This document shows positions 1,757 through 40,687 of a stretch of 64,000 nucleotides of DNA, piece after piece. Each line of letters opens with the position of its first letter. Position 1 is the stretch's first letter. Origin of the DNA: an uncultured Actinomycetota bacterium. GTDB taxonomy: Bacteria; Actinomycetota; Actinomycetes; Streptosporangiales; Streptosporangiaceae. The position numbers and the translations under genes were made by a program. The stretch covers positions 52,920-116,919 of the forward strand of contig CAVRCW010000004.1 in NCBI GenBank assembly GCA_963719765.1, written 5' to 3'. A model generated the notes under the pieces. That model was not told where the DNA came from. It worked only from the letters and a program-made list of their open reading frames with translations, and made no database searches.

Positions 1757-1955
1757 CCAGACTGGCCAGTGCCCGCACGCTGTGACCACGTCGGTGCACC
1801 GTCTTGGGTGGGAAGCGTAGGCATAATCGCATTCGCGATTTTCACAGTAATGCGGCAGGACCCGGATTACGTCAGTCGTCCAAGGCATTTTCGCCGGGCT
1901 GGTTATGTGGGCCGTCGCCCTGTCCTCGGCAACTACCGGAGCGTAGACTAAAACC

Positions 1956-2025
1956 GTTGCTCCGGACCCCGGCAGCTCCGCAAGGGAACATCGCGGCTGT
2001 CGGAGGGGATCGGAGCCTTTTTCTT
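1956..2025 (+). promoter_or_regulatory. conserved leader hairpin + U-tract, copy 1 (candidate attenuator or small RNA)
   Basis: TAGACT -10-like hexamer at 1944-1949. Then GTTGCTCCGGACCCCGGCAGC...GCTGTCGGAGGGGATCGGAGC forms a long imperfect hairpin followed by TTTTT. The 5' arm GCTCCGGAYCCNGGCAGCT is shared with copies at 5831, 6574 and 5683(-). Confidence 0.5.
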
Positions 2026-2283
2026 GCCGCTGGGTGCCGGCAGGCGGCACAGTGCTCGCGCGGCCACAACTGACGACATCACCGCCGAGCAAGCCCAGAA
2101 GCAATGTTCCGGCCTAGCGCGACCTAAGCGCGCAAAATGAGAACGAGAAGCCGACCGAGGAGCAAGTTAAATGAGCGTCATCGCTTCAATTGCTATGGCG
2201 TGGGCAGTGCTGCCCGGCCAGCAGACGGCACGACGATGGCCAGGCTGAACACTGCTGGCCAGCCAACGGGTGGAAGACGTCAG

Positions 2284-2604
2284 ATGAGCACCGCAGTGGC
2301 CATCGTGCTGATGACCGTTGGCGCGATTTTGGTGTTTGCTCTCACCGCAGGATCACCGCACTGGCTCAATCTGCGTATCGTCGGCGTGATCTTCATCATC
2401 GCAGGAATACTCGGCCTGGCGCTTCCACGGCTGGCGCGCTTCAGTGGGGACGGGTTCCGGCGTTGGCGAGCGCCAACGTTTGCGCAGCGCGATCAGTCTC
2501 AGCCCGGTGCTGAACGCCACTTTGTGCCCAGGTCAGACCTTAACGGCAGGGGTCCGACGCTGGCCGATGACATCCTCGGCCTCGAGCATGAACCGCCGCT
2601 ATAG
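2284..2604 (+). CDS. small two-TM membrane protein (resembles the DUF6458 family), paralog 1
   Basis: MSTAVAIVLMTVGAILVFALTAGSPHWLNLRIVGVIFIIAGILGLALP... is clearly paralogous to the 6091-6441 product (shared GSPHWLN-RIVG and a C-terminal LADDI-ELEH-PP motif). ATG at 2284 follows GGAAGA. The listed ORF start at 2137 adds an Arg-rich, non-protein-like extension. Confidence 0.7.
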   Translation: MSTAVAIVLMTVGAILVFALTAGSPHWLNLRIVGVIFIIAGILGLALPRLARFSGDGFRRWRAPTFAQRDQSQPGAERHFVPRSDLNGRGPTLADDILGLEHEPPL

Positions 2605-2894
2605 GACCCGAACATGGTCAAGCGATAACTCACCTGCATCCGTTGCCTGGCTGGCGCGGCGAGCCTGCCAGCGCGGGCACAGGCGGGCCCGCGGCCTCGG
2701 CTAGCTGCCAGCGCATGCTGGGACGCCAGTGCCGTGCCGGGAGCTCGAGTCGGGTGCGGGAGCATCGTCACCGGTGCGGGAACGCCAGCAGCGGGAACTT
2801 GACCGCCCGGTGCCACATCGGCTGTCGGGCTGCGCCCCCGCGGGCGCCGCGCGGGCGCCCCGCGGTCACCGCGCCGAAGGAAGGGGCCGCGCCG

Positions 2895-3647
2895 ATGATA
2901 GGTGACCGGCGGGTCAGGGTGTGGGGCCTGGTCGCCGCGCAGGCGGCTAGCCGGGGCGGCTCTGTGTCCGCTCGGGATGTATGCGCGGCGTCGGTTGCCG
3001 CGGTGGAGGTTAGCGGAGCCTGGCTGACAGCCGGCGCTGGGCAGGCCGCTCACCTGATGTGGGTGACGGACGAGATCGGCGAGATTCTCGCCGAGCTTGA
3101 GCTGACGCTGGGCGAAGGTCCGTTGCTGGACGCGGCCGCTGCTGGCGGCCCGGTGCTGGCTTCGGATCTGGAAACCGTCGAGGCCGGGCGTCGCTGGCCC
3201 GGCTTCGCTCCGGCAGCGCGCCTTGCCGGGGCGGCGGCGGTGTTCGCGTTCCCGCTGCGGATCGGGGCGATCCGGGCCGGGGTGCTAGGCCTGTACCGGG
3301 ACCTGGCCGGCCCGCTAAGCGGCTTCCATCTCGGTGACGCGCTGGTCTTCGCCGATACCGCGACGTTGCTGCTACTCGAGGCTGACGGCTCGGACCAGGC
3401 GACGGGTCACGGCGCACCCGAGCCCGGGCCCGGTGGCCAGCCTGCTGACCTCGCACTGCGCCGGGCGGAGGTCGACCAGGCCACCGGGATGCTCACCGAG
3501 CAGCTCGGCGTTGGCATCGCCGACGCCTTCATTCGGCTGCGGGCCTATGCTTACACACACGAGCTGCGGGTAGTTGATGTCGCCCAGGACATTGTTGCCC
3601 GCCGACTTCGACTGCGCTCCGACTCTGAGTCATCGTTGGATGGTTAG
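2895..3647 (+). CDS. GAF + ANTAR domain RNA-binding regulator
   Basis: C-terminal ANTAR-like segment AEVDQATGMLTEQLGVGIADAFIRLRAYAYTHELRVVDVAQDIV. The N-terminal part is GAF-like. ATG at 2895 is preceded by GAAGGAAGGGG. Confidence 0.8.
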   Translation: MIGDRRVRVWGLVAAQAASRGGSVSARDVCAASVAAVEVSGAWLTAGAGQAAHLMWVTDEIGEILAELELTLGEGPLLDAAAAGGPVLASDLETVEAGRRWPGFAPAARLAGAAAVFAFPLRIGAIRAGVLGLYRDLAGPLSGFHLGDALVFADTATLLLLEADGSDQATGHGAPEPGPGGQPADLALRRAEVDQATGMLTEQLGVGIADAFIRLRAYAYTHELRVVDVAQDIVARRLRLRSDSESSLDG

Positions 3648-3739
3648 GGGTGACGTTGTTACCGGCCGCCACTCCGGCCGCCATGGGCGGCGGGACCTGC
3701 CGCAAGGTGCCTGAAGCGTTGAGAGATGGTGAGCGGCGA

Positions 3740-4507
3740 ATGGACGGACAACTGCTGGCTGACACCTTCGTCGAGCTGACCGACACCATGGTCGCAGACT
3801 TCGATGTCATTGACTTCCTGCACATACTGACTGACCGCAGCGTCGAGCTGCTCGATGTATCCGCGGCTGGCCTGCTACTGGCCGATCCGCGCGGGGAGCT
3901 GCGTGTGCTGGCCGCGTCCAGCGAGGCGGCCAGGGTGCTTGAGCTGTTCCAGCTCCAGAATGACCAGGGTCCGTGCCTGGACTGCTTCCGCGCTGGCCAG
4001 CCCGTCGCGGCGGCGGACCTGAGCGTCGAGGCACACCGCTGGCCGCGATTCGCAGCCGCCGCGCAGGAGGCCGGATTCGCTGCAGTGCAGGCTCTGCCGA
4101 TGCGGTTGAGGGACCAGGTCATCGGCGCGCTCAACTTGTTCCGGGCCGAGCCGGGAGGGTTCGATGCCGCCGACGTACGCATCGGTCAGGCGTTGGCCGA
4201 CGTGGCAACCATCAGCCTGCTACACGAGCGCGGGTTGCGCCAGAGTGACACCCTCAACGAGCAGCTGCAGACTGCGTTGAACAGCCGGGTCATCATCGAG
4301 CAGGCCAAGGGCAAGCTCGCTGAGCGTCTCGGCCTGGACATGCAGCAGGCCTTCGCCCTGCTGCGCGACTACGCCAGGGACCGCAACCGCCGCCTGGCCG
4401 ACGTGGCGCTGGACTTCGTCCAGGGGAACGAAACTCTCATCAGTCAGGCGGCGGTCAAGTCCCGGCAGCAGCCTCGGCCCTCGGGTCGGCCGTCTCACCC
4501 GTCATGA
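3740..4507 (+). CDS. GAF + ANTAR domain RNA-binding regulator (second, tandem)
   Basis: GAF-like N-terminal part (DFDVIDFLHILTDRSVELL...GALNLFR) and an ANTAR segment (ALNSRVIIEQAKGKLAERLGLDMQQAFALLRDYARDRNRRLADVA). Confidence 0.85.
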   Translation: MDGQLLADTFVELTDTMVADFDVIDFLHILTDRSVELLDVSAAGLLLADPRGELRVLAASSEAARVLELFQLQNDQGPCLDCFRAGQPVAAADLSVEAHRWPRFAAAAQEAGFAAVQALPMRLRDQVIGALNLFRAEPGGFDAADVRIGQALADVATISLLHERGLRQSDTLNEQLQTALNSRVIIEQAKGKLAERLGLDMQQAFALLRDYARDRNRRLADVALDFVQGNETLISQAAVKSRQQPRPSGRPSHPS

Positions 4508-5069
4508 GCAGATCCGCCGGCGGGGCGGGGGCGGCCGCCGGTGGGCTGGCAGCCTCCGGGGAGTGGGCCGCTGGTGGCCTGAAAAGCCGCTGCCAGCTCC
4601 GGCCGCTGCCGCTGTCCTGACCGGGGAGCGGGCTGCCGTTGCGGGAGCTGTTACCGGTCGCGGATGCGGTGTCGGCGCGAGCCGCCTCGCGCTGATCGAG
4701 TAGCTCATCACGGTGCTGGCTGACGGTGGCGGTGTCGGCGCGAGCCGCCTCGCGCTGATCGAGTAGCTCATCACGGTGCTGGCTGACGGCGGCGGTCTCG
4801 CGTCGAGACCTCCGCAGGCCCTGCCGTGCTTCACGGCCGCGGCGGGACGTTCGGCGTGCGCCGCCCAGTAGCACGGTGAGGCCGAGCAGCCCGAGTGCCC
4901 CGACCACGATGCCGGACAGGAAGAGGGTGCCGGTGGAGCCAGTCAGGTGGTAGCCGAGAACGGAGAAGGGGTGGGCGAGGGTATGCGCGGCCCCGGCGTT
5001 GCCGAGGACCGCGGCGACGCCGACGATCACCGCGGCGACCAGGAGGACGAGCCCGAAAACGATGATCAT
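4455..5069 (-). CDS. membrane protein with a 21-aa tandem repeat and a disordered C-terminus
   Basis: Two N-terminal TM helices (MIIVFGLVLLVAAVIVGVAAVL, LFLSGIVVGALGLLGLTVLL), then AVSQHRDELLDQREAARADTA twice. The ATG at 5069 has GGAG 6 nt upstream. The 3' end overlaps the convergent ANTAR gene by 53 nt. Confidence 0.6.
   Translation of the reverse strand: MIIVFGLVLLVAAVIVGVAAVLGNAGAAHTLAHPFSVLGYHLTGSTGTLFLSGIVVGALGLLGLTVLLGGARRTSRRGREARQGLRRSRRETAAVSQHRDELLDQREAARADTATVSQHRDELLDQREAARADTASATGNSSRNGSPLPGQDSGSGRSWQRLFRPPAAHSPEAASPPAAAPAPPADLLMTGETADPRAEAAAGT
4668..4793. repeat. near-perfect 63-bp tandem duplication (2 copies) inside a CDS
   Basis: GGTGTCGGCGCGAGCCGCCTCGCGCTGATCGAGTAGCTCATCACGGTGCTGGCTGACGG(T/C)GGC occurs at 4668 and again at 4731. 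It is in frame (21 codons). Confidence 0.95.
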
Positions 5070-5159
5070 GAAGTGCTCCATGGCGTGCGTAACTAGTGGA
5101 CGAAGCCGCCCGAGGTACTAATGGCGGTCTGGTCGCCTGCCCGGACCGGCGGCAGGTGG

Positions 5160-5193
5160 AGTGCCGGGCTGCCCGAGACCTGGAGCAGCCCGG
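5160..5193 (-). terminator. 11-bp stem hairpin directly after the glsB-like stop
   Basis: TGCCGGGCTGC / GCAGCCCGGCA arms around a 12-nt loop. No clear U-tract. Confidence 0.45.
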
Positions 5194-5200
5194 CAGGTCA

Positions 5201-5488
5201 TCAGCGGTGCGCGAATCGGCGGCGGCTAGAGCTGCTGCCGGTAACCAGGTGGTAGAGGAGCAGCAGAACTGCGGCCCCGACGATGGCGGTGATCCACGTG
5301 GAGGCGTTGAAGAACCCGTGCAGGCTGTGGATGTGGAAGATCTTAGTGGCGGCCCAGCCGCCCAGCAGTGCCCCGGCGATGCCGATCAGGCAGGTGATGA
5401 TCAGGCCTTGCTGTCTCCTGCCGGGGATCAGCATATTGGCGAGCAAGCCCGCCCCGATGCCAAGAACGATCCAGGCGATGATACCCAT
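5201..5488 (-). CDS. GlsB/YeaQ/YmgE family stress-response membrane protein
   Basis: MGIIAWIVLGIGAGLLANMLIPGRRQQGLIITCLIGIAGALLGGW... is typical of the transglycosylase-associated (YeaQ) family. RBS GGAGTCGGTT precedes the ATG. Confidence 0.9.
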   Translation of the reverse strand: MGIIAWIVLGIGAGLLANMLIPGRRQQGLIITCLIGIAGALLGGWAATKIFHIHSLHGFFNASTWITAIVGAAVLLLLYHLVTGSSSSRRRFAHR

Positions 5489-5621
5489 AACCGACTCCTT
5501 AGTCAGCGTAAGTGGCGTGTGCGGTAGTCGGTGTTGTGAGGCGAACGCGGCTGGAGAATCGGTCTCCCGCGGGTGCTCAACTCCTTGGTCCGAAGGGTCT
5601 CTCCGGCACCGGTCCGTTTAC

Positions 5622-5683
5622 AAAAAAATCCGGGCCCTGCCGCTGCCCTCGCGATAATGCGGGCAGCTGCCTGGGTCCGGAGC
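5622..5683 (-). promoter_or_regulatory. conserved leader hairpin + U-tract, copy 4 (minus strand, upstream of the glsB-like gene)
   Basis: Minus strand reads TAGCAT(-10-like, 5697-5692)-agagacaa-GCTCCGGACCCAGGCAGCTGCCCGC...GGGCAGCGGCAGGGCCCGGATTTTTTT. It ends 134 nt upstream of the glsB-like start. Confidence 0.5.
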
Positions 5684-5830
5684 TTGTCTCTATGCTACTC
5701 CTTTCTGACTCTGGCGGATAGGGCATTCCGCAGCCAATTGTTCGGCGGTCGCGGCTGGCCATTTTCACCAGCCGTATTCGGCTTTTCGCTAACGAACCTT
5801 CGCGGGAGTATGCTGGGGACTGTTGCTCCG

Positions 5831-5898
5831 GATCCCGGCAGCTGCAGCCGCGAAATGTAACGGCTGTGGACCCGGGCCCGGAGTTTTTTGCGAATGCA
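5831..5898 (+). promoter_or_regulatory. conserved leader hairpin + U-tract, copy 2 (upstream of the second small membrane protein)
   Basis: TATGCT at 5818-5823, then GTTGCTCCGGATCCCGGCAGCTGCAGCCG-cgaaatgtaa-CGGCTGTGGACCCGGGCCCGGAGTTTTTT. Transcribed divergently from copy 4. Confidence 0.5.
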
Positions 5899-6090
5899 CG
5901 GGCACGCGCCGGAGGGCGACAGGACGGGAAGCTGGATTATGGACATCATCGCCTGGGTCGTTATCGGCGGGGCCGCCGGATACCTGCGGTCTGGTCACCA
6001 GGCGCACTGGCGACGGGATGGGGCGCGGCCATGAGCTGGCGGCCAGATCCGGGTCGATCGGCCCGATCACCGCGAGGGCAACGGCGCACG

Positions 6091-6441
6091 ATGGGCACCG
6101 GGCTTGGCATCTCGCTCATCGTCATCGGCGCCATATTGGTGTTCGCCGTGACGGGCTCGCCGCACTGGCTCAACTTTCGGATCGTGGGCATCGTGCTGAT
6201 CGTCGCGGGCACACTCGGCATGGCGCTGCCCGGGCGGCTAAGGCGTCGTGCCTCGGTGTATCCGGATCGCCTGAGCCGCTGGGTTCTTCCAGGCCAGTTC
6301 CCGGTTGCAGGCGATCCGGCGGCCGGAGCAAACCAGGGCGATGAGCTATGCATCCAGCCGCTGGTCACGCAGTTAAGCGCGGAAGACCCGCCGACGCTTG
6401 CCGACGACATCCCGGAGCTGGAACACGACCCGCCCAGCTGA
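6091..6441 (+). CDS. small two-TM membrane protein (resembles the DUF6458 family), paralog 2
   Basis: MGTGLGISLIVIGAILVFAVTGSPHWLNFRIVGIVLIVAGTLGMALP...PTLADDIPELEHDPPS is paralogous to the 2284-2604 product. Confidence 0.7.
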   Translation: MGTGLGISLIVIGAILVFAVTGSPHWLNFRIVGIVLIVAGTLGMALPGRLRRRASVYPDRLSRWVLPGQFPVAGDPAAGANQGDELCIQPLVTQLSAEDPPTLADDIPELEHDPPS

Positions 6442-6573
6442 GCCGATCAGGCCAAGCCCGGCGGATCCTAGCGTGCCAGACATACGAGGCCTGACCTGAG
6501 CGTTTAGCCTGCCGTTTTACTCGCGATGCAATCTCACCGTGGACCTCAGCACCCCGGACCGGTATGGTAATCA

Positions 6574-6642
6574 TGCTGCTCCGGACCCTGGCAGCTGCGC
6601 CCGCTGATGGCAGCGGGCGGACAGCCCGGGATCCGGAGTTTT
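6574..6642 (+). promoter_or_regulatory. conserved leader hairpin + U-tract, copy 3 (orphan, no downstream plus-strand gene)
   Basis: TATGGT at 6563-6568, then TGCTGCTCCGGACCCTGGCAGCTGCGCCCGCTG-atgg-CAGCGGGCGGACAGCCCGGGATCCGGAGTTTT. Confidence 0.5.
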
Positions 6643-6866
6643 CGCGTCCCGAATCACCGGCTAGCCCGCCTGCCGCCCGAGCACCCGTACAGATTGGGTC
6701 CGGCGAACCTGGCCGGCGGTTACGGTGGTCCGCCGGGGAGGGGAGCTGCGGCTAGCGCAGCTCCCGGTCTGGACGCTGGACGCGTGCTCATACCAGGCCG
6801 GATGGCGCACCCGGACGGCCAGGCAGCCAGTGCTTGAGCTGGCCGCCTGGCCGTCCTGTCATGAGT

Positions 6867-7160
6867 TCAGATCTCGTACTGGACCGAGGCCCTGGCTTTC
6901 GTGCGCGGCCTGCTGAGCCTGCTGATGATGTCCTGGTGCTCCGGGTGATCGCGGTACGCGAGGTAGCTGTCCGCGTCATCGAAGTCGCCGACGACCGCGA
7001 AATCGAAGTTGCCCTCGATGATCCCTGCGTCCGGTCCCGCGTGGTACGCGCGCACGCCAGGCAGCGTCGGCGCGAGCGCGTTGAGCTCGGCCACAAGTTG
7101 CTGCTCCTTCTCCCTGGTCATGTCTTCGGTCCAGGCGAAGAGGACGACATGCCTGATCAT
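6867..7160 (-). CDS. Dabb (stress-responsive dimeric alpha/beta barrel) family protein
   Basis: MIRHVVLFAWTEDMTREKEQQLVAELNALAPTLPGVRAYHAGPD...YLAYRDHPEHQ is typical of the Dabb domain. Confidence 0.8.
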   Translation of the reverse strand: MIRHVVLFAWTEDMTREKEQQLVAELNALAPTLPGVRAYHAGPDAGIIEGNFDFAVVGDFDDADSYLAYRDHPEHQDIISRLSRPRTKARASVQYEI

Positions 7161-30878: not shown

Positions 30879-32045
30879 CTAGCGGGAGTGCATCGCGCGC
30901 AGCCGCCTGGCCGCCTCTGCCAGCACTTCGTCGCGCTTGCAGAAGGCAAAGCGAACCTGGCTCCGCCCGGCCTGGCGGTCGTCATAGAAGACGGCGTTCG
31001 GGACAGCCACCACACCGCACTGGTGCGGCAGCCGGCGGCAGAAGTCCAGCCCGCCAGCGTCGCTAAGCCCGGCGATGTCGGTCGTAATGAAGTACGTGCC
31101 CTGCGGACGGTACACCGTGAAGCCCGCCTCGCTGAGACCGGCGGCGAGCATGTCGCGCTTGCGTCGCAGGCCGGCCCCTAGGTCGGCGTAGAACGAGTCG
31201 GGCAGCGCCAGCGCAGTGGCGATTGCGTACTGGAATGGCCCGCTGCTTACGTAGGTCAGGAACTGCTTGGCCGTTCTGACGGCGGTTACCAGCGGCGGCG
31301 ACCCCGTTACCCACCCGACCTTCCAGCCCGTGAACGAGAAGGTCTTGCCCGCGGAACTGATGCTGACGGTCCGGTCCCGCATGCCGGGCAGCGTGGCGAT
31401 CGGGATGTGCTCTCCATCGAAAACGATGTGCTCATAGACCTCGTCGGTGACTACCAGCAAGTCGCGCTCGATTGCCAGGCTGGCGATCTGCGTGAGTTCG
31501 GATCGGGTAGCCACCATGCCCGTCGGGTTGTGCGGCGAGTTAAGCAGGATCAGGCGCGTCTTGCTGGTCACGGCGTCGCGCAGGGCATCGGTGTCAAGCC
31601 TGAAGTCAGCAGGACGCAATGTGACCGGCACCCGCCTCGCGCCCGCCATGGCAATGCAGGCCGCGTAGGAGTCGTAGTAGGGCTCCAGCGCGATGACCTC
31701 GTCGCCGGGCTCGAGCAGGGCCAGCATCGCCGCCGCGATCGCCTCGGTAGCCCCCGCGGTGACCAGAACCTCGGTGTCCGGGTCCACGTCCAGCCCGTAG
31801 AACCGCTTCTGGTGCGCGCTGATGGCCTGCCGGAGTTCCGGGATTCCCTGGCCTGGCGGGTACTGGTTGCCTCGTCCGGACAGTACGGCCTCCGCGGCAA
31901 CGGCGGCGATCTCAGCCGGGCCGTCGGTGTCGGGGAAGCCCTGCCCCAGGTTGATGGAGCCTGTCTCGGTGGCCAGGGCAGACATCTCCGCGAAGATGGT
32001 CGTTCCCATGCCCTCGAGCGCCCTGTTCAGCAGTGGTCGAGTCAT
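30879..32045 (-). CDS. class I/II pyridoxal-phosphate-dependent aminotransferase
   Basis: INLGQGFPDTDGP, NSPHNPTG, SISSAGKTFSFTGWKVGW (PLP lysine region). Confidence 0.9.
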   Translation of the reverse strand: MTRPLLNRALEGMGTTIFAEMSALATETGSINLGQGFPDTDGPAEIAAVAAEAVLSGRGNQYPPGQGIPELRQAISAHQKRFYGLDVDPDTEVLVTAGATEAIAAAMLALLEPGDEVIALEPYYDSYAACIAMAGARRVPVTLRPADFRLDTDALRDAVTSKTRLILLNSPHNPTGMVATRSELTQIASLAIERDLLVVTDEVYEHIVFDGEHIPIATLPGMRDRTVSISSAGKTFSFTGWKVGWVTGSPPLVTAVRTAKQFLTYVSSGPFQYAIATALALPDSFYADLGAGLRRKRDMLAAGLSEAGFTVYRPQGTYFITTDIAGLSDAGGLDFCRRLPHQCGVVAVPNAVFYDDRQAGRSQVRFAFCKRDEVLAEAARRLRAMHSR

Positions 32046-40264: not shown

Positions 40265-40687
40265 ATGTCCAGCATGACGATCTCCCAGACCGGACCGGTA
40301 ACTGTCCGGGTCCAGCGGGGCGGCCCGCTCAGGCTGATGCAACGGCGGGCTCAGCTGGAAGAGTGCTGGCGCGCCGCGCTCGAGCGAGTTACCGACCTGT
40401 CGCTGGCCTATCACGATGCCGCCCAACTCGCCAGGAACGGCGTGCCGGCTGGTCGCGGCGGCGCCGCCAGAAGGGCCAGGCAACTGGCCAGGCGCACCGT
40501 CGCCGAGCGGCAGGCCCTGGCCGAAATCGAGGCTGCCCTGGACCGGATAGCAACCGGCCAGTACGGCCGGTGCGAGCAGTGCCGCGAGCCGATCTCCGCA
40601 GCGCTGCTGGCCAGGCAGCCGCAGGCGCGATACTGCGCTGCCTGCGGCCGCCTGGCTCCCCGGGGCCGCGGCGCCGGAGGCCACTGA
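40265..40687 (+). CDS. TraR/DksA family C4 zinc-finger regulator
   Basis: ALDRIATGQYGRCEQCREPISAALLARQPQARYCAAC. RBS GGAGGGAG. Confidence 0.75.
   Translation: MSSMTISQTGPVTVRVQRGGPLRLMQRRAQLEECWRAALERVTDLSLAYHDAAQLARNGVPAGRGGAARRARQLARRTVAERQALAEIEAALDRIATGQYGRCEQCREPISAALLARQPQARYCAACGRLAPRGRGAGGH

Follow-up and report, generated by a model that had tools for sequence, protein, structure and literature searches.

A previously uncatalogued family of hairpin RNA elements beside stress and membrane genes of uncultured soil actinomycetes

We studied a 64,000-nucleotide stretch of DNA from an uncultured bacterium of the Streptosporangiaceae (Actinomycetota; GenBank assembly GCA_963719765.1, contig CAVRCW010000004.1, positions 52,920 to 116,919), and we call the whole of this 64-kb stretch the window. 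It carries four copies of a small element that consists of a promoter-like motif, a long hairpin, and a run of T. We find that these elements belong to a genuine structured-RNA family that was previously uncatalogued (it is not in Rfam 15). The comparisons below establish the family and its hairpin, the coupling of the hairpin to a promoter motif and to a T-run, the association with particular genes, and the clustering of the copies. As to what the element does, our best reading of the sequences is that it would act as a promoter-proximal attenuator that also yields an RNA of ~65-75 nt, and we put the probability of this at about 50%.

A family of structured elements

The four copies in the window share a 21-nt block, GCTCCGGAYCCNGGCAGCTSC. 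The block occurs four times with 0 mismatches, and there are no further matches in the 64 kb at up to 3 mismatches. By chance, 0.19 matches would be expected, and none of 100 shuffled sequences reached four. In all four copies, a TANNNT hexamer ends 8-10 nt before the G of GCTCC, a single long hairpin is predicted, and a run of T follows. An earlier note on this DNA had described just these features (four conserved blocks, TANNNT 8-10 nt upstream, a hairpin, and T4-T7), and all of them are borne out. Its coordinates were also right overall, except that copy 2 had been placed at 5831-5898, which is a few bases away from the element at 5819/5825-5889. The parts of the four copies are listed here; the blocks were found by pattern matching, the -10 boxes of copies 1, 2, and 4 were identified by their fit to the family logo (GnGTAnnnT, below), and the hairpins of copies 2 to 4 were identified by pattern, fold, and covariance model.

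Copy 1, 1941-1949 (+): extended -10 box GCGTAGACT (TAGACT at 1944-1949)
Copy 1, 1959-1979 (+): conserved block
Copy 1, 1959-2016 (+): hairpin, followed by T at 2018-2022 and then TT at 2024-2025 (whole element 1959-2025)
Copy 2, 5806-5814 (+): extended -10 box GAGTATGCT (TATGCT at 5809-5814)
Copy 2, 5825-5845 (+): conserved block
Copy 2, 5825-5884 (+): hairpin, with a T6 run at 5884-5889
Copy 3, 6540-6568 (+): putative promoter, with TGGAC at 6540-6544, a 15-nt spacer, and CGGTATGGT at 6560-6568 (TATGGT at 6563-6568)
Copy 3, 6578-6598 (+): conserved block
Copy 3, 6578-6639 (+): hairpin, with T4 at 6639-6642
Copy 4, 5723-5716 (-): -35-like sequence CCCTATCC
Copy 4, 5692-5700 (-): extended -10 box GAGTAGCAT (TAGCAT at 5697-5692)
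Copy 4, 5683-5663 (-): conserved block
Copy 4, 5683-5629 (-): hairpin, with a U7 run at 5628-5622

In copy 1, the T of the TA lies 15 nt before the hairpin's G. Copy 1 is the weakest copy (-30.9 kcal/mol, z -0.47, and 34.4 bits from the covariance model described below); the other values are -35.7 kcal/mol, z -2.54, and 63.5 bits for copy 2; -49.2 kcal/mol, z -4.73, and 46.6 bits for copy 3; and -35.0 kcal/mol, z -3.75, and 47.6 bits for copy 4. The upstream region of copy 3 fits both of the conserved promoter blocks of the family. A simple promoter and terminator scanner called none of the four copies, because their stems have internal loops and their promoter is not sigma70-like. Copies 2 and 4 are divergent and 141 bp apart, so they cannot be terminators of upstream genes, as the earlier note had argued.

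To find relatives, we scanned species-representative genomes with the pattern GCTCCGGANCCNGGCAGCT, which gave at least 119 blocks. Among the matches listed, about 50 blocks are chance matches within genes of unrelated bacteria, while at least 67 distinct elements in about 63 blocks share the anatomy of the window copies. The elements with this anatomy, again among the matches listed, all come from metagenome-assembled genomes (MAGs) of uncultured soil or peat actinomycetes, which are labelled as Streptosporangiaceae, Trebonia, Actinomycetes, or Actinomycetota. A plain MAFFT alignment followed by RNAalifold did not recover the long hairpin and returned an invariant mini-hairpin alone, so a hand-structured seed and alignment to a covariance model were needed. 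The seed consisted of eight members of equal length whose structure was assigned by hand. Across the window and 86 loci, the covariance model found at least 85 members at E < 2e-7, in 64 loci. Eighteen of the 85 do not match the search pattern and are therefore unbiased with regard to the 5' arm. This search of related genomes had been proposed in the earlier note.

Within the window, the covariance model finds the four copies only, and the other 57 kb hold no member, which agrees with the earlier statement that the motif is absent elsewhere in the 64 kb. The hairpin at 5160-5193, which had been described as a degenerate relative, was not detected (E > 10); it has no T-run and is an ordinary intergenic hairpin. 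A G+C-rich hairpin at 40611-40655 (CCAGGCAGCCGCAGGCGCGAUACUGCGCUGCCUGCGGCCGCCUGG) has a weak likeness to the upper half of the motif (18.7 bits), with no lower stem, promoter, or T-run. The earlier note had been unable to match the element to a known riboswitch or leader class, and our comparison agrees. With Rfam 15 at the gathering score, there was no match to the element in the window or in 15 member loci, and at E <= 10, positions 1800-6800 of the window gave only noise, with no match to 6C, F6, riboswitch classes, or any other family.

Two kinds of sequence lie at the edge of the family. One is a variant at L048 7683-7760(+), where the promoter-like motif and the conserved 5' arm are fused directly to a Shine-Dalgarno sequence and ATG, with no 3' arm or T-run; CAGCUC in its 5' arm can pair with GAGCUG beside the Shine-Dalgarno sequence. 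The other is a second hairpin, GCCCCGGCCAUCGGGAUCUGCC..., at L087 5507-5575(+) and L052 7579-7647(-), which is weakly similar to the motif (22-24 bits) and lies ~120 nt downstream of a true member, inside that member's leader.

The hairpin is a consistent feature: 63 of 63 aligned members form a single long hairpin of -24 to -47 kcal/mol, with variable apical loops of 5-12 nt. In the model-based alignment of the 85 members, 84.6% of cells have standard pairs, and changes on both sides are found in 15 of the 22 pairs. There are 86 compensatory cells, as compared to 27.5 in column shuffles, and 0 of 500 shuffles reached 86. An alignment that is fitted to a model favours the structure of that model, but controls in which the pairing partners were slid by 1-3 columns carry the same bias, and these had 12-37 compensatory cells. 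Together with the tightly coupled -10 box, the covariation in 85 homologues supports the earlier claim of a structured RNA element with a promoter of its own.

The covariation is located in the upper stems. The lowest helix (GCUCCGG/CCGGAGU) is nearly invariant on both strands; in the member at L029:4020 (GUCCCGG with CCGGGAU), two pairs of this helix, P1, have switched together, from U-A to C-G and from C-G to U-A. The upper stems of copy 3 and of its ortholog at L101:7394-7464, from a syntenic MAG locus, differ strongly, and both pair.

The 5' arm, G-C-U-C-C-G-G-A-C-C-(Y)-N-G-G-(C/U)-(A/G)-G, scarcely varies, even in the 18 members that do not match the pattern. The conserved arm can be written as GCUCCGGACC-NN-GGCAG, and the RNA of the arm is GUUGCUCCGGACCCCGGCAGCUGC. 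The 3' side opposite the GGCA internal helix is paired in only 56.6% of cells. The 5' arm is conserved far beyond the needs of pairing, and this keeps alive the suggestion that it may have a role in recognition by a protein or at the DNA level. We considered two other roles for this arm. First, a coding role is ruled out: no start codon follows the predicted transcription start, and the variation in the 18 pattern-free members lacks codon periodicity. Second, pairing of the arm with the downstream Shine-Dalgarno sequence would, by inspection, involve only ~5 bp and would be weaker than pairing with its own 3' arm.

To characterize the promoter, we took 81 upstream regions and aligned them by the TA in their hexamers. 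The resulting logo, GnGTAnnnT, has G at -3 in 64 of 81 regions, then N (G, C, or A), G at -1 in 78, the T-A, three variable positions, and T at +5 in 79. There is another block farther upstream, with T at -23 in 62 of 81 and C at -19 in 47 of 81 (TGGAC or TATGC). In 73 of the 81, the hairpin's first G comes 15 or 16 nt after the T of the hexamer. We infer that transcription starts ~7 nt after the hexamer, or ~3 nt before the stem. Of the 85 members, 62 have an exact G.GTA...T within the 25 nt upstream, a motif whose background frequency is 0.2 per kb. These 62 account for 28% of the 219 exact matches in the loci, and the rest occur at about the density expected by chance.

Promoters of the sigmaB/sigmaF type (group 3) have a -10 consensus of GGGTA(T/C) and a -35 consensus of GTTT or GGTTT at 14-17 nt. 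The -10 box of our elements resembles this GGGTA box, while the -35 block (T at -23 and C at -19) is unlike GTTT. We found no further promoter of this class downstream of the elements: over the 20.9 kb beyond the T-runs, there are 3 motifs, which is the background level. The leader segment GCGTACGTC was considered as a second promoter and rejected, as it has neither the invariant T nor the -35 block.

At the other end of the hairpin, four or more T follow the stem directly in 81 of the 85 members, and five or more in 65. The DNA of the loci is 15.5% T, the background of runs of at least five T is 0.12 per kb, and half of all such runs in the member loci belong to members. In their sequence, the hairpin and U-tract have the anatomy of an intrinsic terminator.

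Members come in clusters, with two to four in 8 kb, and they often form divergent pairs that are 140-350 bp apart, like copies 2 and 4. The control consisted of 80 metagenome loci (710 kb), each surrounding a homologue (62-83% identity) of the window's aminotransferase (30879-32045); the 22 best-matching loci among these (71-83% identity) make up 199 kb. The covariance model found no members in the 710 kb, and its two weak hits (E 0.003-0.005) are unrelated hairpins. In contrast, the loci that were selected by the motif contain 18 extra copies in ~480 kb. Therefore, the elements are clustered in stress islands, rather than having a high density across the genome.

These results bear on whether the element acts as DNA instead of RNA. 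The invariant block at +4 to +24, with its TCCGGA, CCNGG, and CAGCTG, could be an operator or a downstream promoter element, or the whole could be a palindromic repeat, similar to REP or MITE sequences, that duplicates itself. The far greater conservation of the 5' arm than the 3' arm, its fixed distance from the -10 box, and the share of exact -10 motifs that stand directly before members would fit such an element, as would the remnants of the GlsB N-terminus before other genes (see below), which look like a module spread by duplication. Like REP and REPIN sequences, the element is multi-copy and spread by duplication, and its ~60-70 bp form an imperfect palindrome in which the arms are conserved and the centre varies. 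But the compensatory changes in the upper stems and the paired switch at L029:4020 imply selection on pairing, the T-run is also selected, and the two "half-sites" would be 45-60 bp apart at a variable distance. Moreover, unlike REP or REPIN sequences, our element has a promoter motif and a T-run at fixed distances, is oriented to genes, and is clustered in islands. The earlier note had named a genome-wide, REP-like repeat as the outcome that would undo its proposal; there is no sign of hundreds of copies, with no member in either the remainder of the window (57 kb) or the control loci (710 kb), and plasmid and phage collections, searched with the unit by BLAST, contained nothing similar. We consider that a REP, REPIN, or MITE is ruled out by the link to a promoter motif and a T-run, the relation to genes, and the empty control, and that the first and last of these points also rule out an integron attC site. 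Overall, we think it very unlikely that the element works at the DNA level in place of the RNA level, although a DNA operator could coexist with an RNA function.

Downstream genes and stress islands

In most members, a gene in the same direction begins within ~50-350 nt downstream. The commonest is a GlsB/YeaQ-type gene, whose start follows 30 of the 85 members. Other genes in this position encode fatty-acid desaturases, hemolysin-III, LPG-synthase-TM-like proteins, DUF4234, WhiB, STAS anti-sigma antagonists, HisKA_3 proteins, GAF-ANTAR proteins, and DUF6458-like proteins. A census of the neighbourhoods of the 64 loci gave 29 with GlsB, 12 with LPG-synthase-like genes, 8 with STAS, and 8 with a desaturase. 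GAF-ANTAR genes are present in 13 of the 64 loci (24 open reading frames) and are usually paired: a GAF domain is recognisable in one protein of the pair, and in the other the ANTAR domain alone was detected. Pairs lie downstream of a member and in the same direction in the window and in L101, L117, L087, and L071. The relevant genes in the window are as follows.

2171-2248 (+): upstream open reading frame (uORF) MSVIASIAMAW..., apparent remnant of a GlsB N-terminus; its stop overlaps the start, at 2236, of the next gene
2236-2604 (+): DUF6458-like gene, downstream of copy 1
2895-3647 (+): ANTAR gene (Pfam PF03861)
3740-4507 (+): GAF-ANTAR gene (Pfam PF03861 and GAF)
5201-5488 (-): GlsB/YeaQ/YmgE gene (PF04226), downstream of copy 4
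5939-6034 (+): uORF MDIIAWVVIGG..., apparent remnant of a GlsB N-terminus, upstream of the next gene
6091-6441 (+): DUF6458-like gene, downstream of copy 2

Copy 1 lies 200 nt after a fadE-like gene, and it is followed, all on the forward strand, by the short uORF, the DUF6458-like gene, and the two ANTAR genes. L101 has the same arrangement at 76-82% identity, with MGIIAS... at the position of the uORF 2171-2248. The uORFs look like what is left of glsB 5' regions that were duplicated and now serve as leader ORFs. As GlsB N-terminal remnants stand before the DUF6458-like genes, it seems that a module of promoter, hairpin, and leader was duplicated and recruited to other genes.

A possible attenuator at the transcript's 5' end

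In our preferred reading, each copy would be one transcription module. A stress-type promoter (a -35-like T-N3-C and an extended -10 GnGTAnnnT) would start the transcript ~3 nt before the stem, and the 55-65-nt hairpin with its immediate U-tract would be an intrinsic terminator at the extreme 5' end of that transcript. By default, RNA polymerase would terminate there and release a hairpin RNA of ~65-75 nt, and the downstream stress or membrane gene would be expressed by read-through only. The element would then be a regulon-wide attenuator on top of control by a sigma factor. We favour this reading because the predicted transcript opens with the anatomy of a terminator, and no other promoter of this class was found for the genes behind it. 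With a stem that begins at about +4, nothing lies further upstream that could build an antiterminator, so either the hairpin itself or a factor acting in trans would have to decide the outcome. The 5' arm would leave the polymerase first, and it is probably the recognition site for a trans-acting factor that chooses between termination and read-through. A candidate for this factor is the GAF-ANTAR pair that is encoded in the same islands.

Antitermination at leader terminators is well known from the ANTAR regulators EutV, AmiR, and NasR, and from BglG and SacY with their RAT sites. Our element is like these systems in that a terminator lies in the 5' leader, a conserved sequence lies in the 5' half of the terminator, and one element stands before several operons. 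ANTAR genes are also encoded nearby (2895-3647 and 3740-4507 in the window, and 13 of the 64 loci). The systems differ in that ours leaves no room for an antiterminator upstream of the stem, and in contrast to BglG and SacY, no CAT/PRD protein is present.

Several observations weigh against an attenuator. First, we infer the start site, termination, and read-through from the sequence, as we do the conditional nature of the element and the identity of the factor. Second, known ANTAR targets have two stem-loops, joined by a linker of 2-25 nt, with hexaloops whose first and fourth nucleotides are A and G, respectively (PMC8164766); we looked for this two-hexaloop motif in the element and it is not present, nor does any Rfam model match. 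Third, no antiterminator structure is supported. The sole alternative fold is the mini-hairpin that RNAalifold reported in the 5' arm (GCUCC/GG.AGC, with a 7-nt loop GGACCCN), which would exclude the terminator; it can pair in 97.9% of cells, but it has 0 compensatory changes and cannot be told apart from shuffles. Fourth, intrinsic terminators typically have far shorter hairpins, and copy 1 alone folds no better than shuffled sequence (z -0.47). Finally, some members are orphans with a convergent gene downstream (copy 3, L101:7394, L006, and L055), and these fit a small RNA (sRNA) better. For copy 3, the earlier note had already pointed out that it is an orphan: it has no co-directional gene downstream, and the next gene is a convergent Dabb gene at 6867-7160(-).

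So we must ask whether the elements are instead sibling sRNA genes, present in multiple copies, whose hairpin RNA of ~70 nt would act in trans, with read-through into the downstream gene being incidental. Such an RNA might act on Shine-Dalgarno regions through its C-rich CUCC or ACCCC, or it might titrate a protein. Each unit has its own putative promoter and terminator, there are several copies per island, and orphan units exist; copy 3 has a conserved counterpart in L101 whose stem is compensated, which keeps the sRNA reading alive. Known families of multi-copy, stress-induced sRNAs include LhrC1-5 of Listeria, the csRNAs of streptococci, and 6C RNA of actinobacteria. As in these families, there are several near-identical copies per genome under what would be one stress regulator, and the RNA is short, with a terminator and C-rich stretches. 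On the other hand, most copies of our element form the 5' leader of a gene, the conserved C-rich stretch is base-paired and not exposed (the apical loops vary), and Rfam has no match. Also, complementary target sites in the window are not enriched beyond the elements' own arms: there are 16 versus 8.7 expected, and 7 of the 16 lie inside the four copies. A cis-acting attenuator is favoured because there is no second promoter of the same class and because most members are co-directional with the downstream gene. We therefore regard the sRNA explanation as unlikely.

A hairpin that begins ~3 nt after the predicted start might also protect the 5' end from RNases that depend on it, or it might be a site for RNase III, and in either case the U-tract would be of little consequence. 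The stem is very stable, and RNase III substrates have stems of ~25 bp, like those of the element. But this would leave the strongly selected U-tract (81 of 85) unexplained, as well as the invariant sequence of the lower stem, because any stable stem would do. We consider a stabiliser or processing site to be quite improbable.

Another idea is that the terminator itself senses a ligand: the lower stem and internal loops would bind an ion or a small molecule tied to membrane or osmotic stress, and this would shift the balance between termination and read-through. Conservation is concentrated in the lower stem, the bulge, and the internal loop, with a variable distal stem, and the mini-hairpin provides a mutually exclusive local fold of the 5' half. 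There is also a precedent for specialised terminators that serve as aptamers, namely the HMP-PP (thiS motif) riboswitch, which has its aptamer embedded in the terminator (PMC6478431). Like that riboswitch, our element is a compact and unusually conserved intrinsic terminator, in its anatomy, very near the predicted transcription start, and its alternative 5'-half fold, which resembles the riboswitch's ON state, would preclude termination. But in our element the conserved part is the lower stem and not the loop, the alternative fold has no support from covariation, and what lies downstream is a broad stress regulon, with regulators among its genes, rather than one biosynthetic pathway or transporter. 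Stems of -30 to -49 kcal/mol also leave scant room for control by a ligand. We would be surprised if the element were a sensor of this kind.

A bolder version of the attenuator is that it forms a whole layer of elongation control: every promoter of this class would be followed at +4 by a sequence-invariant terminator, which would be opened by a dedicated factor that binds the 5' arm (a GAF-ANTAR pair acting on a non-canonical target) or by a small ligand that binds an aptamer embedded in the terminator. We think that this is doubtful. If the module worked as in our preferred reading, a whole stress regulon would be controlled twice, at initiation by an alternative sigma factor and, a few nucleotides later, by a dedicated terminator. 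The few known leader RNAs of actinobacteria would gain a new family, and actinobacterial GAF-ANTAR proteins would have a candidate target, open to testing, that is unlike the canonical pair of hexaloops. The hosts are abundant and almost unstudied actinomycetes of soil and peat. The putative promoter, terminator, and read-through switch would fit in a compact ~110 bp, which might be of practical use.

Other features of the window

Downstream of copy 4, the glsB leader that follows the T-run (5489-5621, -) has conserved features of its own. In an alignment of 23 orthologous leaders, conservation extends across ~140 nt. It contains a covarying hairpin, GGGAGACCGAUUCUCC (GGGAGA..UCUCC), at 5568-5553. 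By the alignment and by single folds, a segment ACACCGAC (5534-5527) is complementary to the region of the Shine-Dalgarno sequence and start codon, GGAGUCGGUUAUG (5498-5486). Most orthologues have CAUGACCGAC at the place of ACACCGAC, and there are compensatory variants, from ACCGAC:GUCGGU to ACUGAC:GUCAGU. This leader element is not in Rfam, and it looks like a separate element for translational control.

The membrane-protein gene at 4455-5081(-) contains a perfect tandem duplication of ~60 bp (4670-4789), which gives the repeated peptide ...DTATVSQHRDELLDQREAARA.... The sole tRNA gene in the 64 kb, at 50621-50694(-), has the anticodon CUA, which would decode UAG (amber). Its neighbours are an XRE-like gene (49395-50525) on one side and a small gene (50795-51103) on the other, and it has no close phage relative. 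ARAGORN labels it "tRNA-Pyl" from the anticodon alone; its T-loop is canonical, its CCA end is encoded, and it scores 52.1 bits with the Rfam tRNA model.

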